Of a DNA stretch of 20,259 bases, positions 2,097 to 18,940 are shown piece after piece. Source of the stretch: a virus (lineage: Duplodnaviria; Heunggongvirae; Uroviricota; Caudoviricetes); the IMG/VR virus record IMGVR_UViG_2541047882_000008; one strand, 5' to 3'. The notes below the pieces were generated by a model. That model saw only the letters and a list, made by a program, of their open reading frames with translations. It was not told the DNA's origin and did not search any database. The position numbers were made by a program, and so were the translations under genes. Position 1 is the first letter of the stretch, and every line of letters starts with the position of its first letter.

Positions 2097-4031
2097 TCAC
2101 AATATAGTTAAATGCGATGTTTTTGACGGTGTTTTCCGCGTTACCAGCAGCGTTAACGGTGATGGTGTGTCCGTGTGAGCCAATCGCAACGGAGTGCGTA
2201 TGAGCACCAATACCGACAGTATGTGCATGTGCGCCTGCGCTTGCAGCAGTGCCGGACAGCGAGTGGGTACCCGACCATTCGCATTATCATTAGCTGCTTT
2301 CACTGCTTTCGGTGTCGCGGCAAGCGTTTCAGATGCGCTGTTGGTTGCACTACTGAGCTGGACAATTCCTTTTTGTGCTGTCGTAGCGTCCTGAGCAGTA
2401 TATTTCCCGTTAGCAAGGTCATAGGCTGCCTTTACCGACTTTGGCGTTGCCGCCAGCATTTCAGATGTGCTGTTGGTCGCGTTGCTAAGCTGAACTATCC
2501 CTTTCTGTGCTGTCGTTGCATCCTGTGCGGTGTATTTCCCGTTAGCCAGCTCATACGCGGCCTTAACGGCTTTTGGCGTTGCCGCCAGTGACTCGGAAGT
2601 GCTGTTAGTCGCACTGCTGAGCTGTACTATCCCCTTTTTCGTCGTGCTCGCATCCTCAAGCGCCACGGCGGATGCAATATCCTCTGCCCGTTTTGCTGCT
2701 GTCTCGGCGCGCGTTGCCGCGGATTCCGCCGTACTTTTGCTCTGAGCTGCCGCCGTCGCACTGCCAGCTGCCTCTGTCGCCTTCGTGGATGCCGTCGTGG
2801 CGCTGCCCTTCGCTGCTGACGCCTGTCTGGTCGCCTCATCTTTTGAAGCAGACGCCGATGATGCCGATGACGCCGCCGAACTGGCTGACGATGCGGCAGC
2901 CGTTTTTGAGGATTCTGCGCTGGTTTCCGACGCTTTCGCGTTCGTTTCGGATGTCTTCGCTGCGGAAGCTGACCTCGCTGCTGCCGTGGCCTGTTCAGTG
3001 GCTTCGCCAGCCTTCGTTGTGGCTGTTGAAGCGGATGATGCGGCGCTTTCTGCCGACTTTCCGGCAGCGGTGGCACTGGCTGAGGCCTGCCCGGCATTTG
3101 TTGACGCGGCGCTGGCAGATGAGGCAGCCGCTGTTTTTGAGTCTGCTGCTGCGGAGGCACTCTGTGCTGCTGCCGTCTCAGAAGACTTAGCGTTCGTCTC
3201 GGACGTTTTTGCCGCCTTCGCGGAATTTCCTGCCGCTGTTGCCGAGGAGGCTGCACTACTGGCGCTCGAGGCTGCGCTCGTTTCTGATGATTTTGCCGCC
3301 TCTTTTGAGGCCGCCGCATCCCGGGCTGAGGTGGCAGCTTCTGACGCCTTCGTGGTCGCGGCGGATGCAGAAGTGGCTGCTGATTGTTGTGACGCTGCCG
3401 CATTCGTTTCTGACGTTTTCGCCGCAGCGGCACTGGTAGCTGCCGCGCTTTTTGAGGACTCTGCAGCAGCAGCACTTTTCGATGCTTCACTGGCCTTTGT
3501 TGATGCCGTTCCTGCGCTGGAAGATGCTGACTGAGCAGATGATGCAGCCTGTCCGGCTGACGTGCTGGCGGCACGAGCTGAGCCTGCAGCATCGGTTGTA
3601 TGAGTTGCCGCCTCACTGGCAGATGTGCTGGCATCACTGGCTGACTTCTTCGCGGCTGCCGTGTTCTGTGCCACTGCGGACGCGTTACGCGCCACCTCTT
3701 CCACCATCAGTTCAAAACGGCGCAGAGCCTCCGGACGGGCATCATCCTCCGTCATGGCACCGAGAAAATCATTCAGCGTACCGGGTCGGGAATCTTCATA
3801 CACGGTGATGGTCCCGGCATGTGACGGCGGGAATCCTTCCACCAACAGAATAACGCTGTACTGACCGTACTCAACGTCCATGCTGTAACGCCCGGCTTCA
3901 TCCGGATTTTCTGAGGCCAGCGTGTTCACCACCACCGCGGTGCTGTTACGTTTTGCTTTCAGCTGGATTGTGCAGTTCTGTACCGGTTTTCCTGTGCCGT
4001 CTTTCAGTACACCTGAAATCTTTACTGCCAT
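2097..4031 (-). CDS. stf: Side tail fibre protein Stf, lambda-type N-terminus, Ala/Ser/Thr-rich shaft, collagen-like repeats; C-terminal ~62 codons are encoded in a different frame (frameshifted / internally deleted, probably non-functional)
   Basis: N-terminus [26 protein letters not shown] matches lambda Stf; last ~63 codons of this ORF are low-quality sequence, while the alternative frame from ~2273 to 2089 encodes [62 protein letters not shown], the canonical Stf C-terminus. Confidence 0.75.
2292..2636 (-). repeat. Tandem in-frame ~132-bp repeats (about 2.6 copies) inside stf, encoding [42 protein letters not shown]
   Basis: Three near-identical 44-aa units visible in the translation and as nucleotide repeats. 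Confidence 0.8.
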
Positions 4032-4935: not shown

Positions 4936-5220
4936 TTTGTCGCTCCATGCGCTTGCTCTTCATCTAGCGGTTAAAATATTACTTCAAATCTTTCTGTATG
5001 AAGATTTGAGCACGTTGGCCTTACATACATCTGTCGGTTGTATTTCCCTCCAGAATGCCAGCAGGACCGCACTTTGTTACGCAACCAATACTATTAAGTG
5101 AAAACATTCCTAATATTTGACATAAATCATCAACAAAACACAAAGAGGTCAGACCAGATTGAAACGATAAAAACGATAATGCAAACTACGCGCCCTCGTA
5201 TCACATGGAAGGTTTTACCA

Positions 5221-5631
5221 ATGGCTCAGGTTGCCATTTTTAAAGAAATATTCGATCAAGTGCGAAAAGATTTAAACTGTGAATTGTTTTATTCTGAACT
5301 AAAACGTCACAACGTCTCACATTATATTTACTATCTAGCCACAGATAATATTCACATCGTGTTAGAAAACGATAACACCGTGTTAATAAAAGGACTTAAA
5401 AAGGTTGTAAATGTTAAATTCTCAAGAAACACGCATCTTATAGAAACGTCCTATGATAGGTTGAAATCAAGAGAAATCACATTTCAGCAATACAGGGAAA
5501 ATCTTGCTAAAGCAGGAGTTTTCCGATGGGTTACAAATATCCATGAACATAAAAGATATTACTATACCTTTGATAATTCATTACTATTTACTGAGAGCAT
5601 TCAGAACACTACACAAATCTTTCCACGCTAA
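5221..5631 (+). CDS. ybcV: YbcV-like prophage protein (136 aa from the internal Met; ORF track starts upstream at 5098)
   Basis: Translation [43 protein letters not shown]... recalled as DLP12 YbcV. Confidence 0.6.
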
Positions 5632-5921
5632 ATCATAACGTCCGGTTTCTTCCGTGTCAGCACCGGGGCGTTGGCATAATGCAATACGTGTACGCGCTAA
5701 ACCCTGTGTGCATCGTTTTTAATTATTCCCGGACACTCCCGCAGAGAAGTTCCCCGTCAGGGCTGTGGACATAGTTAATCCGGGAATACAATGACGATTC
5801 ATCGCACCTGACATACATTAATAAATATTAACAATATGAAATTTCAACTCATTGTTTAGGGTTTGTTTAATTTTCTACACATACGATTCTGCGAACTTCA
5901 AAAAGCATCGGGAATAACACC

Positions 5922-6215
5922 ATGAAAAAAATGCTACTCGCTACTGCGCTGGCCCTGCTTATTACAGGATGTGCTCAACAGACGTTTACTGTTCAAAACA
6001 AACCGGCAGCAGTAGCACCAAAGGAAACCATCACCCATCATTTCTTCGTTTCTGGAATTGGGCAGAAGAAAACTGTCGATGCAGCCAAAATTTGTGGCGG
6101 CGCAGAAAATGTTGTTAAAACAGAAACCCAGCAAACATTCGTAAATGGATTGCTCGGTTTTATTACTTTAGGCATTTATACTCCGCTGGAAGCGCGTGTG
6201 TATTGCTCACAATAA
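5922..6215 (+). CDS. bor: Bor lipoprotein (serum-resistance-associated outer membrane lipoprotein, 97 aa)
   Basis: Signal peptide plus lipobox LITGC; sequence and length match lambda Bor; placed opposite to the lysis genes as in lambda. Confidence 0.8.
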   Translation: MKKMLLATALALLITGCAQQTFTVQNKPAAVAPKETITHHFFVSGIGQKKTVDAAKICGGAENVVKTETQQTFVNGLLGFITLGIYTPLEARVYCSQ

Positions 6216-6246
6216 TTGCATGAGTTGCCCATCGATATGGGCAACT

Positions 6247-6708
6247 CTATCTGCACTGCTCATTAATATACTTCTGGGTTCCTTCCAGTTGTTTTTGCAT
6301 AGTGATCAGCCTCTCTCTGAGGGTGAAATAATCCCGTTCAGCGGTGTCTGCCAGTCGGGGGGAGGCTGCATTATCCACGCCGGAGGCGGTGGTGGCTTCA
6401 CGCACTGACTGACAGACTGCTTTGATGTGCAACCGACGACGACCAGCGGCAACATCATCACGCAGAGCATCATTTTCAGCTTTCGCATCAGCTAACTCCT
6501 TCGTGTATTTTGCATCGAGCGCAGCAACATCACGCTGACGCATCTGCATGTCAGTAATTGCCGCGTTCGCCAGCTTCAGTTCTCTGGCATTTTTGTCGCG
6601 CTGGGCTTTGTAGGTAATGGCGTTATCACGGTAATGATTAACAGCCCATGACAGGTAGACGATGATGCAGATAACCAGAGCGGAGATAATCGCGGTTACT
6701 CTGTTCAT
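6247..6708 (-). CDS. Rz: Spanin inner-membrane subunit Rz (i-spanin)
   Basis: N-terminal TM segment, coiled-coil body; Rz1 embedded in +1 frame; follows the endolysin gene. Confidence 0.8.
6306..6488 (-). CDS. Rz1: Spanin outer-membrane lipoprotein Rz1 (o-spanin), fully embedded within Rz in another frame
   Basis: 60-aa ORF with lipobox VVGC and proline-rich mature region, nested in Rz. Confidence 0.7.
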
Positions 6709-7202
6709 TGCTGACCCCACAAACAGATTTCACGCTCAATCTCACGACGAGTCATGAGACCTTTCCATTGCTTACCGCCAGCATATGTCCAGCGACGTAG
6801 CTGATCACATGCGCCTTTGATATCGCCCTGGTTTATTTTGCGAAGAAGCGTCGATGTTCTGAAATTGCCAGCACCCACGTTGTAAACGAATGAGTAAAGA
6901 GCGCCGCGCGTTGTTTCCGGTATATCGACTTTGATGTACGGGTTAATTTGTCTGGCGACAGTGGCAAGGTCTTTATTCAAGAGTGCTTTGCATTCTGCTT
7001 TGGTATACGTTTTACCGAGCATGATGTCTTTTCCGGTGTGTCCGTGACATACAGTCCATACGCCAACGATATCTTTGTATGGTACGTAGCTGACACCTTC
7101 CAGACCATCGTTACCACTTGGGCCAGTAATTAACACTGATGCTATAGCAATTGCTCCGCCACCAATAGCAGCAGCAACGGCTTTTCGTAATGATGGAGGC
7201 AT
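6705..7202 (-). CDS. R: Endolysin R, lysozyme family, with N-terminal signal-anchor-release (SAR) hydrophobic segment (phage 21 / DLP12 RrrD type)
   Basis: Gly/Ala-rich weakly hydrophobic N-terminus [18 protein letters not shown] followed by a lysozyme-like body; ATGA overlap with the S stop. Confidence 0.8.
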
Positions 7203-8004: not shown

Positions 8005-9087
8005 ATGAAAAAATTAACAGTGGCAATTTCTGCTGTAGCTGCATCAGTACTGATGGCGATGTCTGCTCAGGCAGCTGAAATTTATAATAAAGACAGTAAC
8101 AAGCTGGATCTGTACGGGAAAGTTAATGCTAAGCACTACTTCTCCTCTAATGATGCAGATGATGGTGATACTACTTATGCCCGTCTTGGCTTCAAAGGTG
8201 AAACCCAAATCAACGATCAACTGACTGGTTTCGGTCAGTGGGAATATGAATTCAAAGGCAACCGCGCTGAATCTCAAGGTTCCTCCAAAGATAAAACCCG
8301 TCTTGCCTTCGCTGGCCTGAAATTCGGTGACTACGGCTCCATCGATTATGGCCGTAACTACGGTGTAGCATACGATATTGGTGCATGGACCGACGTTCTG
8401 CCAGAATTCGGTGGCGATACCTGGACCCAAACAGATGTATTCATGACTGGTCGCACCACAGGTGTTGCAACTTATCGTAACAATGACTTCTTTGGTCTGG
8501 TTGATGGTCTGAACTTTGCTGCTCAGTATCAGGGTAAAAATGACCGCACTGACGTAACTGAAGCTAATGGTGATGGTTTCGGTTTCTCCACTACTTATGA
8601 GTATGAAGGATTCGGTGTAGGTGCAACCTATGCTAAATCTGACCGCACTAATAATCAGGTTATCTACGGTAACAACAGCCTGAATGCATCTGGTCAAAAT
8701 GCTGAAGTATGGGCAGCTGGTCTGAAATATGATGCGAACAACATCTATCTGGCTACCACCTATTCTGAAACCCAGAACATGACTGTTTTTGGTAATAACC
8801 ATATTGCCAACAAAGCACAAAACTTCGAAGTAGTTGCACAATATCAGTTCGACTTCGGTCTGCGTCCGTCCGTTGCTTACCTGCAATCTAAAGGAAAAGA
8901 CTTGGGTGCGTGGGGTGATCAGGACCTGGTTGAATATATTGATGTAGGTGCAACCTATTACTTCAACAAAAATATGTCCACTTTTGTTGATTACAAAATC
9001 AACCTGATTGATAAGAGCGATTTCACGAAAGCATCTGGCGTTGCTACCGATGATATCGTTGCTGTAGGTATGGTTTACCAGTTCTAA
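8005..9087 (+). CDS. nmpC: OmpC-family general porin (NmpC / OmpD / Lc-like), phage-borne moron (360 aa from MKKLTVAIS; ORF track starts at 7945)
   Basis: Signal peptide ending [10 protein letters not shown], porin-typical beta-barrel sequence ending in aromatic YQF; located between Q and S on the opposite strand, as nmpC in DLP12. Confidence 0.8.
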
Positions 9088-11339: not shown

Positions 11340-11792
11340 TTAGTGACGTGGGTCTGTTATTATGCGAGAAGGGTTTCCGTATAAAACAAGGACCTTACTT
11401 CCTTGAGTAAATAACGGATCTTTGCCTTGAACAATGGTCATTAAATTCCCATTCTCAGTTTCGACAACATATTCCATGCCTGTTTGTTTTGTTGCTGAAG
11501 ATTCGATTGCTGCCCCGGCAATACCACCAATGACTGCACCACCAACGGCACCAACGATATTAGAACGAACTCCCCCACCAAGCGCAGAACCAGCGGTTGC
11601 CCCCACGGCAGCCCCAGCAGTCCCGCCTAACGCGGAAGTCCCACTGATATCAACCCCCCTAGCACTAATAACTGTACCAGCGATAGTTCGATTAACCATG
11701 CCCACAGAGCCAACAGAATAACTATTTGGCGATATATTTTGTGCGCATCCAACCAACACTAAGAGTGGAGCAATTACGAATAATCGCTTCAT
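11340..11792 (-). CDS. SlyB/PCP-family outer-membrane lipoprotein paralogue (glycine-zipper domain plus C-terminal beta domain), prophage cargo
   Basis: Signal peptide with lipobox LVGC; Gly/Ala zipper GTSALGGTAGAAVGATAGSALGGGV...GAVGGAVIGGIAGAAI; C-terminal region aligns by eye with SlyB (GMEYVVETENGNLMTIVQGKDPLFTQGSKVLVLYGNPSRI). Confidence 0.7.
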   Translation of the reverse strand: MKRLFVIAPLLVLVGCAQNISPNSYSVGSVGMVNRTIAGTVISARGVDISGTSALGGTAGAAVGATAGSALGGGVRSNIVGAVGGAVIGGIAGAAIESSATKQTGMEYVVETENGNLMTIVQGKDPLFTQGSKVLVLYGNPSRIITDPRH

Positions 11793-12349
11793 TTAGCTAC
11801 CCTAACAGGAAACATTGGACGAGAAAGATCAACACTTTCTAATGCTTGCAAGAACTGCGTTATGTTGTTTTGCACCGCGCGATTAACAGATTCGCGTGCT
11901 CGAACAATACCGTAGAATGCGTAACTGGCTGGAACAGTACCGGTAGACTCAATATCCTGCGTATATATAATATCACCATTCGCACGGTTGATTATTTCAT
12001 ACCTTGCAATTGCTTTAGTTGTCATTGAAACACCAAAAGCAGGAACGTCAAGAGCCAACACTTTAACATTTAAGCTAACCGTATTTGGTGAACTATCACG
12101 AAAAATAGTCATTCGGTCGAGTGCTTCCTGCAAAGATTCACGCCAAATTGGAGTTATAGCCTCCATACCAGCAGTGATATCCCCTTTCTGCTCATCTGGA
12201 CGAGCAAGTGATACCGTTAATGACTTAATTTCAGCATCTATTTTTTTCTGGCTAACTCCCACGTTAGGTGTTGAAAAATTCAATGGTGGCACACTAGCGC
12301 AACCTGTTAAAGAACCAATAATCATGGCTAATAATATTATCTTCTTCAT
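11789..12349 (-). CDS. Lipoprotein of unknown function (186 aa), translationally coupled (ATGA overlap) to the downstream SlyB-like gene
   Basis: Signal peptide MKKIILLAMIIGSLTGC with lipobox; AT-rich codon usage; 4-nt overlap with the next gene. Confidence 0.6.
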   Translation of the reverse strand: MKKIILLAMIIGSLTGCASVPPLNFSTPNVGVSQKKIDAEIKSLTVSLARPDEQKGDITAGMEAITPIWRESLQEALDRMTIFRDSSPNTVSLNVKVLALDVPAFGVSMTTKAIARYEIINRANGDIIYTQDIESTGTVPASYAFYGIVRARESVNRAVQNNITQFLQALESVDLSRPMFPVRVAK

Positions 12350-12605
12350 AAATTTACCTTATTGTTATAACCAAAGGAATTATAAAGTAAAAAAGTTCAC
12401 TATCACTAGCCATTAACGACATCAATTTCAGAGAAACATGGTACTCATTTCCACAAATTTGACACAAGTCATTTTCACCTACATATTCCATCATACTTGA
12501 TGCATATGTTATTGAAGCCTCTATCCTATCCGTTCATAATAGCAATAGTTACCCGGGTGATAGTACCTCTATGATTACTCGTCTTTCTGATTGATTGGAT
12601 TAAAT

Positions 12606-12797
12606 ATGCGCGCCAAAATTTATCAACTTTCGTTATGGATATTTATTTCGTTTCTAGCGATCTATGCCTTTATTATCTATAAAGGTTCTTATATTGGAGT
12701 AGCATTGCATCAAATTGCTTGGATCATCATTATTGCCTCTGGCTTGATTGCTAGGCTAACTAAACCAAAGCAAAAACCAATTTCGTCCAATAATTAG
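12606..12797 (+). CDS. Putative small membrane protein with two predicted TM helices (63 aa from the ATG; ORF track starts at a TTG at 12591)
   Basis: Two hydrophobic stretches (LSLWIFISFLAIYAFIIY, IAWIIIIASGLIA); AT-rich; weak ribosome-binding site, so coding status uncertain. Confidence 0.3.
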   Translation: MRAKIYQLSLWIFISFLAIYAFIIYKGSYIGVALHQIAWIIIIASGLIARLTKPKQKPISSNN

Positions 12798-12956
12798 ACA
12801 TGTATTAAAAAAATGATATTTTTATGTACATAGTCTATTGAAAATTGCCGCGATAAAATGCCAACACCCGCTTCATCGCGGCACTCTGGCGACACTCCTT
12901 GAAAATCAGATTCGTGCTCACCTTTCCTTCCCGTTCTTCCCTGGTAGCGAACCGGT

Positions 12957-13403
12957 AATCATCCGATCTGCGTTACCGAGTGGATGGATGAATGCCGCCG
13001 CGAACCATTCAAAACCCGCGAAGGCAGAGAAATTACGGGGCCGTGGCAGTCGCATCCCAAACGGATGTTACGGCATAAAGCCATGATTCAGTGTGCCCGT
13101 CTGGCCTTCGGATTTGCTGGTATCTATGACAAGGATGAAGCCGAGCGCATTGTCGAAAATACCGCATACACCGCAGAACGTCAGCCGGAACGCGACATTA
13201 CTCCGGTTAACGATGAAACCATGCAGGAGATTAACACTCTGCTGATTGCCCTGGACAAAACATGGGATGACGACTTATTGCCGCTCTGTTCCCAGATATT
13301 TCGCCGCGACATTCGCGCATCGTCAGAACTGACACAGGCCGAAGCAGTGAAAGCTCTTGGATTCCTGAAACAGAAAGCCACTGAGCAGAAGGTGGCAGCA
13401 TGA
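12957..13403 (+). pseudogene. bet: 5'-truncated bet (lambda Red-beta recombinase), only about the C-terminal 148 codons present
   Basis: Translation ...NHPICVTEWMDECRREPFKTREGREITGPWQSHPKRMLRHKAMIQCARLAFGF...[11 protein letters not shown] matches the lambda Bet C-terminus; upstream sequence unrelated and no in-frame start for the N-terminal domain. Confidence 0.8.
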
Positions 13404-14080
13404 CACCGGACATTATCCTGCAGCGTACCGGGATCGACGTGAGAGCTGTCGAACAGGGGGATGATGCATGGCACAAATTACGGCTCGGCGTCATCACCGC
13501 TTCAGAAGTTCACAACGTGATAGCCAAGCCCCGCTCAGGAAAGAAGTGGCCTGACATGAAAATGTCCTACTTCCACACCCTGCTGGCTGAGGTTTGCACC
13601 GGTGTGGCTCCGGAAGTTAATGCTAAGGCGCTGGCATGGGGAAAACAGTACGAGAACGACGCCAGAACCCTGTTTGAATTCACTTCCGGCGTGAATGTTA
13701 CTGAATCCCCGATCATCTATCGCGACGAAAGTATGCGCACCGCCTGCTCTCCCGATGGTTTATGCAGTGACGGCAATGGCCTTGAGCTGAAATGCCCGTT
13801 TACCTCCCGGGATTTCATGAAGTTCCGGCTCGGTGGTTTCGAGGCCATAAAGTCGGCTTACATGGCCCAGGTGCAGTACAGCATGTGGGTGACACGAAAA
13901 GATGCCTGGTACTTTGCCAACTATGACCCGCGTATGAAGCGTGAAGGACTGCATTATGTCGTGGTTGAGCGGGATGAAAAGTACATGGCGAGTTTTGACG
14001 AGATGGTGCCGGTGTTCATCGAAAAAATGGACGAGGCACTGGCTGAAATTGGTTTTGTATTTGGGGAGCAATGGCGATGA
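13400..14080 (+). CDS. exo: Lambda exonuclease Exo (Red-alpha, 226 aa)
   Basis: Translation [54 protein letters not shown]... essentially lambda Exo; ATGA overlap with bet. Confidence 0.9.
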
Positions 14081-14259
14081 CGCATCCTCACGATAATATC
14101 CGGGTAGGCGCAATCACTTTCGTCTACTCCGTTACAAAGCGAGGCTGGGTATTTCCCGGCCTTTCTGTTATCCGAAATCCACTGAAAGCACAGCGGCTGG
14201 CTGAGGAGATAAATAATAAACGAGGGGCTGTATGCACAAAGCATCTCCTGTTGAGTTAA
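14077..14259 (+). CDS. Lambda orf60a-like protein (60 aa)
   Basis: 60-aa ORF immediately after exo, overlapping orf63 by 28 nt as in lambda. Confidence 0.6.
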
Positions 14260-14423
14260 GAACGAGTATTGAGATGGCACATAGCCTTGCTCAAATTGGA
14301 ATCAGGTTTGTGCCAATACCAGTAGAAACAGACGAAGAATTTCATACGTTAGCCACATCCCTTTCACAAAAACTGGAAATGATGGTGGCGAAAGCAGAAG
14401 CAGATGAGAGAGACCAGGTATGA
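14232..14423 (+). CDS. Lambda orf63-like protein (63 aa)
   Basis: 63-aa [66 protein letters not shown] in the lambda orf63 position. Confidence 0.6.
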   Translation: MHKASPVELRTSIEMAHSLAQIGIRFVPIPVETDEEFHTLATSLSQKLEMMVAKAEADERDQV

Positions 14424-14499
14424 CAACCACTGAATGCATTTTTCTGGCAGCGGGCTTCATATTCTGTGTGCTTATGCTTGCCGACATGGGGCTTGTTCA

Positions 14500-14715
14500 G
14501 TGACACCTCAGCAGGAAAACGCCCTTCGCAGCATTGCCCGTCAGGCTAATTCTGAAATCAAAAAAGCCAGACAGCAGTTTCCGGATAAAAACGTCGATGA
14601 CATTTGCCGTAGCGTACTGAAGAAGCACCGCGAAACGGTAACGCTGATGGGATTCACACCGACTCATTTAAGTCTAGCAATCGGCATGTTAAACGGCGTT
14701 TTTAAGGAACGGTGA
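14500..14715 (+). CDS. Hypothetical early-left-operon protein (71 aa from in-frame GTG; start uncertain)
   Basis: Open frame in the lambda orf61 region; GTG overlaps the stop of a 27-codon hydrophobic mini-ORF (14420-14503). Confidence 0.35.
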   Translation: MTPQQENALRSIARQANSEIKKARQQFPDKNVDDICRSVLKKHRETVTLMGFTPTHLSLAIGMLNGVFKER

Positions 14716-14813
14716 ACATGAAAAGCAAAATCATCAGGGAGCTACAGGCTCCTTTTTTATTATTCGCATTCACCCTCAAGCGTATTAACCAACAATTCAG
14801 GGATTAATGAAAG

Positions 14814-15035
14814 ATGGCAGACATCATTGATTCAGCATCAGAAATTGAAGAATTACAGCGCAACACAGCAATAAAAATGCGCCGCCTGAACCACCAGGCT
14901 ATATCTGCCACTCATTGTTGTGAGTGTGGCGATCCGATAGATGAACGAAGACGCCTGGCCGTTCAGGGTTGTCGGACTTGTGCAAGTTGCCAGGAGGATC
15001 TGGAACTTATCAGTAAACAGAGAGGTTCGAAGTGA
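14814..15035 (+). CDS. TraR/DksA-type C4 zinc-finger protein (lambda Orf73-like, 73 aa)
   Basis: Motif CCECGDPIDERRRLAVQGCRTCASCQ, typical of phage TraR-like RNA polymerase-binding proteins. Confidence 0.7.
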   Translation: MADIIDSASEIEELQRNTAIKMRRLNHQAISATHCCECGDPIDERRRLAVQGCRTCASCQEDLELISKQRGSK

Positions 15036-15283
15036 GCGTAATTCACTCTCAGGCACTGCGTGAAGCGGCAGAGCAGGCAATGCATGACAACTGGGGATTT
15101 GACGCGGACCTTTTCCATGAGCTGGTAACACCATCGATTGTGCTGACACTGCTGGATGAACGGGAAAGAAACCAGCAGTACATCAAACGCCGCGACCAGG
15201 AGAACGAGGATATTGCGCTAACGGTGAGGAAACTGCGTGTTGAGCTGGAGACAGCAAAAATCAAAACTCAACGAGCAGCGTGA
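15032..15283 (+). CDS. ea22: Ea22-like protein, N-terminal 83 codons ending at an in-frame TGA; the same frame stays open for 53 further codons to a TAG at 15443-15445
   Basis: N-terminus resembles my recollection of lambda Ea22 (QALREAAEQAMHD..WGFDADLFHELVTPSIVL); Ea22-like sequence (EGVISDGSKRIA) continues in frame after the TGA. Confidence 0.5.
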   Translation: MSVIHSQALREAAEQAMHDNWGFDADLFHELVTPSIVLTLLDERERNQQYIKRRDQENEDIALTVRKLRVELETAKIKTQRAA

Positions 15284-15581
15284 GTAGAAGGTGTTATCTC
15301 GGATGGAAGTAAGCGTATTGCTGAACTGGAGGCCTGGGTTGAATACACAAGAGCTGCATACGTAAGAGCAAAAGACAAGGGAGATTTGATCAGAGTTATT
15401 ACCCGACAACCAACGGGATTTTACGCTTACGTACCATGTAATTAGGAATCCTTGAAGTGGCAGCCTAACTGCGGATACACTGAAATGGCGATTTGGTAAC
15501 ATGTTTCGCACAAGGCTGTTACTACGCTTAAAGATAATCAGCCATGATTAAACGCTTTGTAAAAAGTAAAAGGAAATTACA

Positions 15582-16196
15582 ATGAAAAAATCAATACTAA
15601 TTTTAGGGCTTACGTTAATTGTCTCATCTCAAATACCATCGGCAATGGCAAAAAATGAATCAAGACTTTGGGTTGTTGTTGATCGAACGGAAAGACATAC
15701 CTGCCCTTCAAGTAAATGTGGAGTGGCTGGGAAACTATTTTTCAGGGAAGGCGTAGATTTTCTAGAAAAAAAAGGTGAATGGGTTCGTATAACTGAGCCA
15801 TATTCAGCCTCATGTGTGGGAGGGGAAAGCGAATATATTAAAGAAGGTAATAAATCCTGCACAAGAAAAAACGGAATCGTCAATGGCAAGTTTTCAGAAT
15901 GGGTTAAACTTAGTGATCTTAGCAGTGAAAGGCCATCAGATCCTGCTGAAAATGCGAGCGGAGATGATACTTTAATCAAAGGATCTGATGACTACCGTAT
16001 ATACAAAAAAGAGTTTTCTTCGGCAGCTAGGAAGTTAATAAACGAAGGGGTCTGCACGGAAAGCGACTTTAAGGAAATCGGAGGGTGGATGGCATCAAGC
16101 AATAAGGGGAAAAACATCTATTTCACATATTGCGGAGGAATGACGTTGTCGAACAGAATATACCTAGACGTTAAAAGTGGAAAGACTTTTAGATAA
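15582..16196 (+). CDS. Secreted cysteine-containing protein of unknown function (204 aa), AT-rich moron
   Basis: N-terminal signal peptide MKKSILILGLTLIVSSQIPSAMA; six Cys in the mature part; marked drop in GC content; followed by a terminator. Confidence 0.6.
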   Translation: MKKSILILGLTLIVSSQIPSAMAKNESRLWVVVDRTERHTCPSSKCGVAGKLFFREGVDFLEKKGEWVRITEPYSASCVGGESEYIKEGNKSCTRKNGIVNGKFSEWVKLSDLSSERPSDPAENASGDDTLIKGSDDYRIYKKEFSSAARKLINEGVCTESDFKEIGGWMASSNKGKNIYFTYCGGMTLSNRIYLDVKSGKTFR

Positions 16197-16267
16197 TATG
16201 ATATTACCAATGACAGTATTAATTTAATGCCTCCATAGAATTATCTCTAGGAAGTATGTATAAGAAA

Positions 16268-16302
16268 AGCCCGCACAATGAGCTGCTGCGGGCTTTGTGT
16301 TA
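16268..16302 (+). terminator. Rho-independent terminator after the secreted-protein gene (stem AGCCCGCA/TGCGGGCT then TTTGTGTT)
   Basis: GC-rich inverted repeat followed by a T-rich tract. Confidence 0.5.
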
Positions 16303-16489
16303 TTCGCCATATTTTATGAAGCAAATACGACACTATAGATAATTAAGCGTTGCTGGTTGTCGATTCCTCACTCACTCCTGTTGATGGCTCTCTTCTTGTA
16401 TGTGCCATTGAAGGGTAATATCGAGTAAAAAGATACCGGAAGTATCCGCGCCGCCATGATTGTCTTTCTCCTAATGCAGGAAAAGCAGA

Positions 16490-16609
16490 ATGGCTAAATC
16501 ATCAGCAGAGCGCAAAGTCGATCAGAGAGCCAAGCAAGCATCATCCGGTATGCGTAAGCTGGAGCTTGTACTTGATGCTCAGGAAATTGAAATGCTGGAT
16601 CGTAACTGA
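16490..16609 (+). CDS. Small ORF (39 aa) with a good ribosome-binding site, ending at TGA; same frame stays open 72 more codons (to 16826) and encodes a zinc-ribbon-like motif
   Basis: AGGAAA 6 nt before ATG; downstream in-frame segment contains C-x2-C-x9-C-x-C (RCGKCGERVPVNSCPCNG) but no ATG (an in-frame GTG exists). Confidence 0.35.
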   Translation: MAKSSAERKVDQRAKQASSGMRKLELVLDAQEIEMLDRN

Positions 16610-16856
16610 GCCACGCGCCGCTTCAGGCATGCGCCTTACGAGTTTGGTGAGTACATCGCGTTACTGAGCCGCCAGGATGATGCACGTGTGCGCTGGCGTA
16701 TAAAATCGATCAGCAGAAAACGTTGCGGTAAGTGCGGCGAGAGAGTTCCTGTTAATTCATGCCCGTGTAATGGTGACTCACAATGCTGGGTGACCAAAGG
16801 CTGGCACGAAACAAAATTAATGATATAAATCTCTGTGACATGTCACGGAGGCGGCA

Positions 16857-17285
16857 ATGAAATTAGACCAGCAATATCTAAAAGATCTACTTATCGCATT
16901 CGAAAAAACTCATGGCCCTGACACGATGCTTAGTGAACTAGAGGATAATGGCTTTAATAGATATGACCAAAATTTTATTTTCCATATGCGATTATTATGC
17001 GACTACGAATTAATAGTCAGGGTTGATGGAAAACCTGGGTTCGGTCATATAATGTCCAACGAGTTAGGGGAAGGTGTTGGATATAGTTGGATCGAAGTAC
17101 CACTGAGGTTGACAGCAAGAGGGCATGATTTTATTGCTGACTTGCGTCAAAAGGAGGTCTGGCAAACTATAAAAACAAACTTTAAGGATGAGGGAATTAG
17201 TACACTAATAAGTGTTTCAAAATCACTAGCAAAAGGCTTTGCAAGGAAAAAGATAAAAGATATTACAGGAATAGATATTGAATAA
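16857..17285 (+). CDS. Hypothetical protein (142 aa), AT-rich, occupying the slot of lambda ea8.5
   Basis: Clean ORF with ribosome-binding site GGAGG upstream, low GC, followed by a terminator. Confidence 0.55.
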   Translation: MKLDQQYLKDLLIAFEKTHGPDTMLSELEDNGFNRYDQNFIFHMRLLCDYELIVRVDGKPGFGHIMSNELGEGVGYSWIEVPLRLTARGHDFIADLRQKEVWQTIKTNFKDEGISTLISVSKSLAKGFARKKIKDITGIDIE

Positions 17286-17329
17286 TTCTTAGCATCAGCA
17301 ACTACTGCCTTTGGTGGAAATTATATCTG

Positions 17330-17354
17330 AACTCGCTACGGCGAGTTTTGTTTT
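17330..17354 (+). terminator. Rho-independent terminator (AACTCGC-TACG-GCGAGTT then TTTTGTTTT)
   Basis: 7-bp stem, 4-nt loop, T-rich tail directly after the 142-aa gene. Confidence 0.6.
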
Positions 17355-17367
17355 ATGGAGATGATAA

Positions 17368-17535
17368 ATGCACTTCCGAGTCACAGGTGAATGGAATGGA
17401 GAACCATTCAACAGAGTTATCGAAGCAGAGAACATCAATGACTGCTATGACCACTGGATGATATGGGCGCAGATAGCACATGCAGACATAACCAATATTC
17501 GAATTGAAGAACTGAAAGAACACCAAGCCGCCTGA
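17368..17535 (+). CDS. Lambda orf55-like small protein (55 aa)
   Basis: Manual translation MHFRVTGEWNGEPFNRVIEAENINDCYDHWMIWAQIAHADITNIRIEELKEHQAA; size and position (just upstream of xis) as lambda orf55. Confidence 0.5.
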   Translation: MHFRVTGEWNGEPFNRVIEAENINDCYDHWMIWAQIAHADITNIRIEELKEHQAA

Positions 17536-17548
17536 TGGCGGTTTTTTC
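17527..17548 (+). terminator. Candidate rho-independent terminator between orf55 and xis (CCGCC-TGAT-GGCGG then TTTTTTC)
   Basis: Short GC stem with a 6-T run; the orf55 stop codon lies in the loop. Confidence 0.45.
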
Positions 17549-17574
17549 TTGCGTGTAATTGCGGAGACTTTGCG

Positions 17575-17793
17575 ATGTACTTGACACTTCAGGAGTGGAA
17601 CGCTCGCCAGCGACGCCCAAGAAGCCTTGAAACAGTTCGTCGATGGGTGCGCGAATGCAGGATATTCCCTCCTCCGGTTAAGGATGGAAGAGAATATCTG
17701 TTCCACGAATCAGCGGTAAAGGTTGACTTAAATCGACCAGTAACAGGTAGCCTTTTGAAGAGGATCAGAAATGGGAAGAAGGCGAAGTCATGA
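17575..17793 (+). CDS. xis: Excisionase Xis (72 aa), lambda type
   Basis: Translation MYLTLQEWNARQRRPRSLETVRRWVRECRIFPPPVKDGREYLFHESAVKVDLNRP... matches lambda Xis; overlaps int start. Confidence 0.9.
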   Translation: MYLTLQEWNARQRRPRSLETVRRWVRECRIFPPPVKDGREYLFHESAVKVDLNRPVTGSLLKRIRNGKKAKS

Positions 17794-18841
17794 GCGCCGG
17801 GATTTACCCCCTAACCTTTATATAAGAAACAATGGATATTACTGCTACAGGGACCCAAGGACGGGTAAAGAGTTTGGATTAGGCCGAGACAGGCGAATCG
17901 CAATCACTGAAGCTATACAGGCCAACATTGAGTTATTTTCAGGACACAAACACAAGCCTCTGACAGCGAGAATCAACAGTGATAATTCCGTTACGTTACA
18001 TTCATGGCTTGATCGCTACGAAAAAATCCTGGCCAGCAGAGGAATCAAGCAGAAGACACTCATAAATTACATGAGCAAAATTAAAGCAATAAGGAGGGGT
18101 CTGCCTGATGCTCCACTTGAAGACATCACCACAAAAGAAATTGCGGCAATGCTCAATGGATACATAGACGAGGGAAAGGCGGCATCAGCCAAGTTAATCA
18201 GATCAACACTGAGCGATGCATTCCGAGAGGCTATGGCTGAAGGCCATATAACAACAAACCCGGTCGCAGCCACTCGCGCTGCAAAATCAGAGGTAAGGAG
18301 ATCAAGACTTACGGCTGACGAATACCTGAAAATTTATCAAGCAGCAGAATCATCACCATGTTGGCTTAGACTTGCAATGGAACTGGCTGTTGTTACCGGG
18401 CAGCGAGTTGGTGATTTATGCGAAATGAAGTGGTCTGATATCGTAGATGGATATCTTTATGTCGAGCAAAGCAAAACAGGCGTAAAAATTGCCATCCCAA
18501 CAACATTGCATGTTGATGCTCTCGGGATATCAATGAAGGAAACACTTGATAAATGCAAAAAGATTCTTGGCGGAGAAACCATAATTGCATCTACTCGTCG
18601 TGAACCGCTTTCATCCGGCACAGTATCAAGGTATTTTATGCGCGCACGAAAAGCATCAGGTCTCTCCTTCGAAGGGGATCCGCCAACCTTTCACGAGTTG
18701 CGCAGTTTGTCTGCAAGACTCTATGAGAAGCAGATAAGCGATAAATTTGCTCAACATCTTCTCGGGCATAAGTCGGACACCATGGCATCACAGTATCGTG
18801 ATGACAGAGGCAGGGAGTGGGACAAAATTGAAATCAAATAA
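17771..18841 (+). CDS. int: Tyrosine integrase Int (356 aa), essentially lambda Int
   Basis: Translation MGRRRSHERRDLPPNLYIRNNGYYCYRDPRTGKEFGLGRDRRIAITEAIQANIELFSGHKHKPL... through ...HLLGHKSDTMASQYRDDRGREWDKIEIK matches lambda Int from memory, including catalytic R-K-H-R-H-Y region. Confidence 0.95.
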   Translation: MGRRRSHERRDLPPNLYIRNNGYYCYRDPRTGKEFGLGRDRRIAITEAIQANIELFSGHKHKPLTARINSDNSVTLHSWLDRYEKILASRGIKQKTLINYMSKIKAIRRGLPDAPLEDITTKEIAAMLNGYIDEGKAASAKLIRSTLSDAFREAMAEGHITTNPVAATRAAKSEVRRSRLTADEYLKIYQAAESSPCWLRLAMELAVVTGQRVGDLCEMKWSDIVDGYLYVEQSKTGVKIAIPTTLHVDALGISMKETLDKCKKILGGETIIASTRREPLSSGTVSRYFMRARKASGLSFEGDPPTFHELRSLSARLYEKQISDKFAQHLLGHKSDTMASQYRDDRGREWDKIEIK

Positions 18842-18940
18842 TGATTTTATTTTGACTGATAGTGACCTGTTCGTTGCAACAAATTGATAAGCAATGCTTT
18901 TTTATAATGCCAACTTAGTATAAAAAAGCAGGCTTCAACG
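18842..18940. other. attL (B-O-P'): lambda P' arm with Int arm-type/IHF sites, 15-bp core TTAGTATAAAAAAGC at 18915-18929, then bacterial B arm
   Basis: Sequence 18842-18914 is the reverse complement of the lambda attP P' arm as I recall it; core followed by AGGCT matches the attB side. Confidence 0.85.

Follow-up and report, generated by a model that had tools for sequence, protein, structure and literature searches.

The window analysed here is a 20,259-nt stretch of DNA (IMG/VR virus record IMGVR_UViG_2541047882_000008; Caudoviricetes), and it carries on the + strand a gene for a 204-aa protein. Very probably, this is a horizontally acquired, self-contained cargo gene that is maintained by selection, and it encodes a protein that is exported, disulfide-bonded and made up of two domains, one of them a bacterial SH3 (SH3b) domain of the wall-binding type. 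An earlier note on the window had described an AT-rich moron at this place, with an open reading frame (ORF) of 204 codons and a ribosome-binding site; both were recovered. The gene and its local features are as follows.

15440–15581, + strand: conserved 5' non-coding region (candidate promoter, leader and ribosome-binding site) that moves together with the gene
15452–15481, + strand: weak candidate sigma-70 promoter, TTGAAG-18 nt-TACACT, 8/12 matches, read from the sequence
15570–15574, + strand: ribosome-binding site AAGGA, 7 nt 5' of the ATG
15582–16196, + strand: coding sequence, 204 aa, PHROG 8310, RefSeq WP_000748284 ('hypothetical protein')
15582–15650, + strand: Sec-dependent signal peptide of the signal peptidase I (SPase I) type, residues 1–23, predicted cleavage AMA/KN, by inspection
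15660–15917, + strand: SH3b domain, residues ~27–112
15945–16193, + strand: C-terminal alpha+beta domain, residues 122–204 (83 residues), no family assigned
16199–16346, + strand: AT-rich 3' tail of the foreign segment, absent from the copy on a P1-like phage-plasmid
16266–16304, + strand: intrinsic-terminator-like hairpin AAAGCCCGCA...TGCGGGCTTT with a TTTGTGTTATT tail, by folding and scan

The ORF starts with ATG, and in the local base composition a stop-free run of 204 codons has a chance probability of about 1e-7. The gene is under strong purifying selection. The ratio of nonsynonymous to synonymous substitution rates (dN/dS) is 0.097 against the copy in the lambda-like phage Chlobot, 0.065 against a plasmid copy and 0.085 against the P1-like copy (dS 0.71). 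A survey of 5,426 complete E. coli genomes showed the gene in 133 (2.5%); carrier strains include PEC1009, FORC_081 and NCTC9087. Among 36 E. coli-type copies in IMG/VR, 34 encode the full 204 aa. These 34 copies show 11 protein variants, and the cysteines are untouched in all of them. As to the possibility, raised in the earlier note, of disruption in related prophages, the ORF is therefore intact in most. In the window, the ORF is intact, and yet its neighbours in the same dead prophage have become pseudogenes, namely ea22, the umuD-like gene and the ORF that comes next.

The other two of the 36 copies are frameshifted near an A8 run at about 15766–15773, and the proteins are truncated at 65 and 69 residues. 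The A8 run corresponds to codons 62–64, and both truncations fall just past it. These frameshifts could be sequencing errors or slipped-strand on/off switching. IS1 elements were also observed. In strain 1332KP, IS1A lies inside the ORF at 15750–15758 with a 9-bp target duplication. In the ATCC 8739 lineage, IS1 lies at 15515/15525, 57–66 bp upstream of the ATG of the intact ORF, and separates the candidate promoter from the gene. The two insertions are independent, at most 250 bp apart and in different E. coli lineages; IS1 apparently favours the AT-rich cassette as a target.

The base composition and the comparison with other copies delimit the foreign segment. The sliding-window GC content is 0.38–0.40 over 15300–16500, against about 0.50 upstream. 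By segment, it is 0.496 in the left lambda-like flank, 0.389 in the cassette 15440–16198, 0.345 in the 3' tail and 0.448 in the right lambda-like flank, in agreement with the drop described in the earlier note. On a P1/P7-like phage-plasmid found in E. fergusonii and E. coli, the gene that directly follows hot and humD encodes a protein of 89% identity. The DNA shared with this copy is only 15440–16198 (84.9% identity), which consists of 142 bp upstream and the ORF to its stop codon. Both ends are sharp: at 15440 the identity rises from 48% to 81%, and a second break lies at 16198. The upstream region is 81% identical and the four-fold degenerate sites of the ORF are 61% identical (Fisher p = 0.0025). 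The upstream region is thus more conserved than the four-fold sites, which argues that it is functional. According to this comparison, the assignment of 15440–16198 as the mobile unit, with the terminator hairpin following at 16266–16304, appears well supported. Transposon-type flanking inverted or direct repeats were searched for, and the matches were at chance level only.

More distant homologues (58–69% identity) are located at quite different positions. In an Aeromonas prophage, the homologue lies between the Q antiterminator and holin genes. In three viral contigs of IMG/VR, it lies between the endolysin/Rz genes and the terminase, beside a tail gene, and antisense between the genes for the major head-protease and head-decoration proteins, respectively. 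The antisense homologue in the head operon requires its own promoter. Other homologues are located immediately downstream of tyrosine integrases in small Pseudomonas islands, and a 5.3-kb ColE1-type plasmid of Citrobacter braakii carries a homologue as its only evident cargo gene. A distribution of this kind is the defining mark of a moron (PMC3594210). When the ORFs of 71 loci were clustered, no conserved neighbour gene was found, which indicates that the function is self-contained; the clusters contain only genes that are common in general (GGDEF, sensor-kinase, OmpA-like and transposase genes). PHROG scans of the genes next to the Pseudomonas-island and P1-like copies were uninformative.

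Sixteen large plasmids (E. coli, Klebsiella, Enterobacter and Citrobacter) carry the gene within a captured lambda exo–xis fragment of at least 2.9 kb. Independent movement of the cassette onto these plasmids was considered and is ruled out, as the whole lambda fragment is present there. The carrier plasmids of these four genera include conjugative and resistance plasmids. In the IncA plasmid pA18-1 of Citrobacter freundii, for example, the fragment lies beside a Rac-like trkG, IS5, Tn5403 and an ars operon. The presence of the exo–xis fragment in such plasmids indicates that prophage debris is disseminated by them. On the P1-like phage-plasmid, a Tad2-like (anti-Thoeris family) gene, a dUTPase gene and several genes of unknown function lie at 4956–6949 on the opposite strand, between the homologue and cre. 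From its gene content, this stretch looks like an accessory or anti-defence islet.

The signals for expression were examined next to the gene. The candidate promoter at 15452–15481 scores under the threshold of the promoter scan. TTGAAG and TACACT both lie within the longest upstream stretches that are perfectly conserved between the lambdoid and P1-like copies. A -10-like GATAAT (15533–15538) is also conserved, and the invariant stretches include the ribosome-binding site. A purine-rich ribosome-binding site is the only upstream element common to the Pseudomonas, Aeromonas and Citrobacter homologues. We infer that the gene has its own promoter, for which the candidates are weak but conserved. 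The Rfam scan of 14800–17800 gave one match, at chance level. Downstream of the gene, the hairpin predicted in the earlier note is present and terminator-like, with arms at 16266–16275 and 16287–16296 followed by TTTGTGTT, a folding energy of -18.8 kcal/mol and z = -3.0 against shuffled sequences. The terminator scanner called it on the - strand, without a + strand call, probably because of a bulge in the stem and the 11-nt loop. As an A-run is located 5' of the hairpin, the terminator is potentially bidirectional. The P1-like copy has a different hairpin of the same type 3' of the gene. Three of the four sequence-level features of a moron (position, composition and terminator) are found, and the moron reading is supported. 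The foreign composition, the hairpin, the 142 bp that move with the gene and the other moron sites agree with the description of the segment as an autonomous moron unit, in which the promoter is putative.

The N-terminus of the protein, MKKSILILGLTLIVSSQIPSAMA followed by KNES, has by inspection the n-h-c layout of an SPase I signal peptide. It consists of two lysines (KK), an 11-residue core (SILILGLTLIV, mean Kyte-Doolittle value 2.8) and A-M-A at positions -3 to -1. Because no cysteine is present before residue 41, the protein is not a lipoprotein; the Pfam LPAM_1 score is 14.1 bits against a threshold of 20. Export or anchor signals are present in 189 of about 200 relatives with a complete N-terminus, and the classes among them are SPase I-like (81), lipobox (29) and transmembrane-like anchors (66). 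The protein is thus almost certainly exported to the periplasm, judging from its N-terminus, and the Sec signal peptide of the earlier note is confirmed by inspection and by the family-wide signals. The six cysteines counted there are residues 41, 46, 78, 93, 158 and 184 of the mature part, each at least 90% conserved in the family. Across 176 relatives, the pairs 41/46 and 78/93 are kept or lost jointly, and 158/184 is universal. This pairwise pattern supports three predicted disulfides, 41–46, 78–93 and 158–184, and hence an oxidising compartment.

AlphaFold2, with a 43-sequence alignment as input, gave a model with a predicted local distance difference test (pLDDT) score of 90.3, in which the signal peptide alone is disordered with low pLDDT. 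According to this model, the N-terminal half of the protein is an SH3b domain by fold and not by Pfam threshold. It has the SH3b beta-barrel fold, and its strong structural neighbours are, without exception, modules that bind the cell wall. Pfam SH3_3 (PF08239) matches only residues 40–72, with 16.1 bits against a gathering cut-off of 27 (E 0.013). It matches 41 of the 43 homologues at E<1 (best 5.9e-8), and related proteins with canonical SH3_3 domains reach 88 bits. SH3b domains of this type anchor endolysins and NlpC/P60 enzymes to peptidoglycan. Compared with the SH3b domains of endolysins, lysostaphin and NlpC/P60 peptidases, the 204-aa protein has a C-x4-C loop clamped by a disulfide (C41–C46) and a disulfide-bonded insertion of about 35 residues (70–104, with C78–C93). 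Unlike those enzymes, it has no catalytic domain and is predicted to be periplasmic, in a Gram-negative host.

The C-terminal domain consists of three helices and a three-stranded sheet, with C158–C184 and the motifs SDD, GGW, YFTYCGG and NRIYLD. Conserved polar residues are S135, D136, D137, D162, S172, Y183 and N191. No Pfam or NCBIfam match to this domain was found in the protein or its 43 homologues, and a profile of this domain alone gave no match to PDB sequences at E values up to 10. Its top structural neighbour, a weak one, is extracellular subdomain 2 of MapZ (PDB 2NDA). Other weak neighbours are cystatin-like, BLIP-like, NTF2-like and PepSY-like folds and a type VI immunity protein. 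For the whole protein, the Pfam, NCBIfam and PADLOC scans of the same 44 sequences gave only the sub-threshold SH3_3 match and a spurious LPAM_1 match. The single-sequence search of the PDB gave no match, and the Foldseek search of viral structures (BFVD) gave SH3b matches only, none at E <=1e-3. Strong homology to a well-characterised family was therefore not found by profile or structure searches, in line with the earlier note. Its statement that no family can be assigned stands for characterised families and does not stand otherwise, as the N-terminal half is SH3b and the whole protein belongs to PHROG 8310. Two kinds of match were rejected. The full-length profile matched de novo designed TIM barrels in the PDB (E ~1e-6); these matches are artefactual, since repetitive designed helices match the linker/helix region and the matches vanish with the profile of the C-terminal domain only. 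Weak matches to the Pfam family 'Bubble protein' in 5 of the 43 members were dismissed as cysteine-rich noise.

The PHROG 8310 match covers residues 1–204 and profile positions 1–204 (E 3.6e-136). It is a full-length match without functional annotation, and PHROG records only the occurrence of a sequence in phage genomes. The sequence is thus already in databases as a 'hypothetical protein' and as PHROG 8310, and the C-terminal domain is truly unannotated. A profile search of 1.84 billion cluster representatives gave 1,507 clusters at E <=1e-3 and 172 at E <=1e-30. In the relatives, the C-terminal domain follows one to three canonical SH3b domains, and some relatives add an N-terminal zinc ribbon with a membrane segment, or ankyrin repeats. 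The C-terminal domain also occurs by itself, in proteins of about 100 aa that carry a signal peptide or lipobox. Fusions of the C-terminal domain to catalytic domains were not found; the only forms are those with SH3b, zinc-ribbon plus transmembrane and ankyrin partners and the stand-alone proteins. The hosts include Pseudomonas, Vibrio, Shewanella, Marinobacter, Rhodobacteraceae, Rhizobiales and Burkholderiales, and also Acidobacteria, Vampirovibrionales, Campylobacterota, Bacteroidota and Gemmatimonadota. Every host named here belongs to a diderm lineage.

The window is a cryptic lambdoid prophage at attB-lambda, adjoining ybhC, and is 100% identical to complete E. coli genomes, e.g. PEC1009. 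The + strand corresponds to the pL direction. The order of genes is a 3' fragment of bet/recT, exo, orf60a-, orf63- and orf61-like genes, and orf73 (TraR/DksA-like), followed by a frameshifted ea22 remnant, the 204-aa gene, orf55, xis and int. A ren fragment abuts the bet/recT 3' fragment near 12957 (within 12835–13403). This joint indicates that the immunity and replication region (pL, N, cI, cro, O, P and others) has been deleted and that the prophage is cryptic. BLASTN against lambda aligned 13301–15330 and 17320–18900 at 97–98%, with nothing aligned between them, and in lambda the 204-aa gene is absent between the same flanking genes. The features of the segment between the two aligned parts are as follows.

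15331–17319, no strand assigned: mosaic replacement block, 1,989 bp; the 760 bp replaced in lambda are the 3' half of ea22 and the whole of ea8.5
15335–15413, + strand: left junction, 3' piece of an EaA-like/hypothetical gene of SSU5-like phage-plasmids, 86–90% identity to Cyrano and PhiR41_1
16347–16450, + strand: right junction, internal fragment of a umuD/humD-like (S24 peptidase) gene, pseudogene, 85–91% identity to Cyrano and PhiR41_1
16857–17285: second AT-rich gene (GC 0.36), intact, 142-aa DUF2513 protein, PHROG 585, no known function

The gene had been described as inserted in the ea22–ea8.5 region. It does lie between the ea22 remnant and orf55/xis/int; it is not a clean insertion, and because 1,989 bp were exchanged for 760 bp of lambda, 'inserted' should read mosaic replacement. 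The AT-rich gene sits between the EaA-like and umuD-like pieces. The identity of the umuD-like piece to Cyrano and PhiR41_1 points to a past recombination between lambda and a phage-plasmid through genes of the Ea22 family.

Several observations concern the other genes of the prophage. The ea22 homologue at 15032–15330 is truncated and frameshifted; its 83-aa ORF ends at 15283 and the lambda homology continues to 15330. The pro-lysogenic function of Ea22 has presumably been lost in the lineage of the window. RefSeq labels the umuD-like fragment 'DNA repair protein, partial'. At 16347–16856, the umuD/humD-like remnant is followed by an ORF with an internal stop, and the equivalent region of Chlobot is annotated as a 105-aa UmuD-like protein and a 46-aa regulator. 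The DUF2513 gene gave no PADLOC match and may be another moron. In Cyrano, an AT-rich (GC 0.40) stretch of about 800 bp without ORFs (3213–4015) lies between the EaA-like and umuD-like genes, in the slot equivalent to that of the 204-aa gene in the lineage of the window. This stretch may be a decayed insert or an RNA gene. The 73-aa TraR/DksA-like protein, a homologue of lambda Orf73, is encoded intact at 14814–15035; its homologues are reported to act directly on host RNA polymerase and reprogram it (PMC9239242). The lowest GC content of the window (0.32–0.36) is found at 12150–12900, which overlaps hypothetical ORFs on the - strand (e.g. 11789–12349) before the ren fragment. The upstream late region is DLP12-like, with quuD, essD/rrrD/rzpD, bor and an ompC/nmpC-like porin gene at about 8005–9087; thus, the element is a lambda/DLP12 mosaic.

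As for the function, the best overall explanation is tentative and includes a wall-directed mechanism. In the lysogen, transcription of the gene would start at its own weak promoter; where the phage is intact, as in the case of Chlobot, pL transcripts antiterminated by N would extend across the gene as well. The hairpin would stop promoter-proximal transcripts before xis and int; transcripts from pL that are modified by N read through terminators. Sec would export the 204-aa precursor, the signal peptide would be cleaved off behind Ala23, and oxidation in the periplasm would give the mature protein, of about 20 kDa, its three disulfides. The SH3b domain would then bind the sacculus and present the C-terminal domain at the cell wall, where it would shield peptidoglycan from, or inhibit, an incoming wall-degrading activity. 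Such an activity could come from a superinfecting phage (its tail lysin), from an amidase or muramidase effector of a type VI system, from a bacteriocin or from host lysozyme. The outcome would be a stand-alone fitness benefit to the carrier cell. This specific mechanism, wall-bound protection against wall-degrading attack, is possible rather than probable. Three points lead to it. The strong structural neighbours of the N-terminal domain all bind the cell wall, with MapZ as the weak top neighbour of the C-terminal domain. The weak neighbours of the latter include cystatin-, BLIP- and PepSY-like inhibitor folds and a type VI immunity protein. Finally, the first moron to be described, HK97 gp15, is a superinfection-exclusion protein (PMC3594210).

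The gene resembles known morons such as HK97 gene 15 and lambda bor and lom in several respects. It is an extra gene between normally adjacent genes, with foreign composition, a downstream terminator and an envelope-located product, and it has moved among unrelated phage backbones. It differs from them in that it arrived within a 2-kb mosaic replacement in which 760 bp were lost, and was not purely additive. The protein is unrelated to gp15, Bor and Lom, and is predicted to be soluble in the periplasm, not membrane-embedded or lipidated. Subdomain 2 of MapZ is a peptidoglycan-binding fold with a conserved hydrophilic patch (PMC4931243). Like it, the C-terminal domain of the 204-aa protein is a small extracytoplasmic C-terminal alpha+beta domain with a conserved hydrophilic patch. 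Small, Sec-exported, disulfide-containing proteins that protect the wall or the entry route as single genes are T4 Spackle and P1 Sim, and Ivy, PliC/MliC and PliG. Both PliC/MliC and the family of the 204-aa protein have soluble and lipoprotein versions. Sequence or Pfam similarity to Spackle, Sim, Ivy, PliC/MliC or PliG was not found, and the folds have no significant match. For the lysozyme inhibitors Ivy, PliC/MliC, PliG and PliI, neither Pfam nor structure gave a family match. The described exclusion families (Sim, Sp, Cor, Llp, SieA and gp15) showed no homology to the protein in the PADLOC scan and in tblastn of phage records.

Several results weigh against a protective function of this kind. 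PADLOC gave no match to known defence families. According to tblastn of 50,697 phage records, the gene is present in one isolated phage, Chlobot, and is therefore not a common phage strategy. Many members of the family are chromosomal and outside mobile elements, in free-living alpha- and gammaproteobacteria, Acidobacteria and others, and these members agree with a general role in the envelope no less than with defence. SH3 folds can bind proteins too. With respect to expression, the sigma-70 promoter scan of the + strand found no site with at least 9/12 matches, and across genera nothing is conserved beyond the ribosome-binding site, the upstream DNA being unconserved outside the Escherichia lineage. 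Three inactivated copies are present in total, namely the two frameshifts and the IS1 inside the ORF. In the literature, no paper was found that names the protein or its accession; a link between an exported SH3b protein and the exo–xis region was likewise not found there.

Of the other explanations, a general envelope protein, which would bind peptidoglycan or a different polymer of the envelope and modulate wall architecture, outer-membrane tethering or stress tolerance as a cargo of mild fitness effect, survives best and is still unlikely. The family is widespread in diderm chromosomes in non-mobile contexts (one member lies between a methyltransferase gene and pheT), it has no conserved partner gene, and some of its members are lipoproteins or periplasmic proteins that consist of the C-terminal domain alone. 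In Enterobacteria, Pseudomonas and Aeromonas, however, the copies are on mobile elements only, and in E. coli 2.5% of the genomes carry the gene. This distribution indicates an accessory trait under frequency-dependent or niche-specific selection, and not a core envelope function.

Masking of a receptor or another protein is an improbable explanation. Through its SH3b domain, its C-terminal domain or both, the protein would bind a protein partner in the periplasm or outer membrane, and not peptidoglycan, and block phage DNA entry or bacteriocin import, as with Cor, Llp and P1 Sim. SH3 folds are classic protein-binding modules, the gene stands alone, and exported exclusion proteins are typical prophage cargo (PMC3594210). 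However, the strong structural neighbours all bind the cell wall, and the searches above gave no similarity to phage proteins save the Chlobot copy and no PADLOC match. Moreover, the family spans phyla without common receptor proteins, so that a universal ligand such as peptidoglycan fits better.

A function in the phage life cycle is equally improbable. As an early pL gene, it would stabilise the wall until holin-timed lysis, or block secondary adsorption or injection. In Chlobot, where the pL operon is intact, and in the window, the gene lies between exo and xis, co-oriented with pL, and N-antiterminated transcripts would read through it. The exo–xis genes belong to the early genes and influence development (PMC7093339, PMC4195576). 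The homologues, however, have no common phage timing, as they occur in late regions, antisense in a head operon, in integrase islands and on a ColE1-type plasmid, and in the window the gene is kept intact in a prophage without pL, N and cI.

It is very improbable that the gene is a silent passenger in the window, without a functional promoter and intact only through recent acquisition. The lack of a consensus promoter, the deleted immunity region, the many copies that are 100% identical and the occasional inactivated copies would fit such a passenger. On the other hand, dN/dS is about 0.07–0.1 among copies with differences at as many as 44% of their synonymous sites, the upstream region is constrained, and the adjacent genes in the block have decayed while the 204-aa gene has not. 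Least probable of all is a small new enzyme (a peptidoglycan hydrolase or modifier) targeted by the SH3b domain: the domain order mirrors SH3b-enzyme fusions such as endolysins and NlpC/P60, and polar residues from S135 to N191 are conserved, but the C-terminal domain has only 83 residues, no fold or sequence similarity to any hydrolase and no evident nucleophile/acid pattern of a known class.

The wall-directed explanation is the preferred one. Its most specific form is rather a long shot: the C-terminal domain would be a new wall-directed module, either a peptidoglycan-hydrolase inhibitor or a new peptidoglycan-recognition fold, and the SH3b-tethered protein would give periplasmic protection from a single gene, as a system not recognised before. 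If this is the case, superinfecting phages would be excluded at the step of the cell wall, or the carrier would be immune to attack by type VI systems or lysozyme. The trait would be spread across Proteobacteria by lambdoid phages and P1-like phage-plasmids as well as by integrase islands and small plasmids of the ColE1 type. If the gene has no measurable effect, it would be one more hypothetical moron. The gene has useful traits: it is a single-gene unit with a confident structural model, clear purifying selection and an unusually broad range of vehicles, namely lambda-like phages, a P1-like phage-plasmid, other prophages (in four different positions), islands with an integrase, a plasmid of the ColE1 type and, within a lambda fragment, large resistance plasmids. 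It also draws attention to a large family of exported proteins, with about 1,500 clusters at 50% identity; the C-terminal domain that defines this family is absent from Pfam, and no relative of its fold has been solved or can be recognised. Should the protein act at the level of peptidoglycan, a wall-level mechanism would be added to prophage-conferred protection, and a widespread unannotated domain would gain a function.

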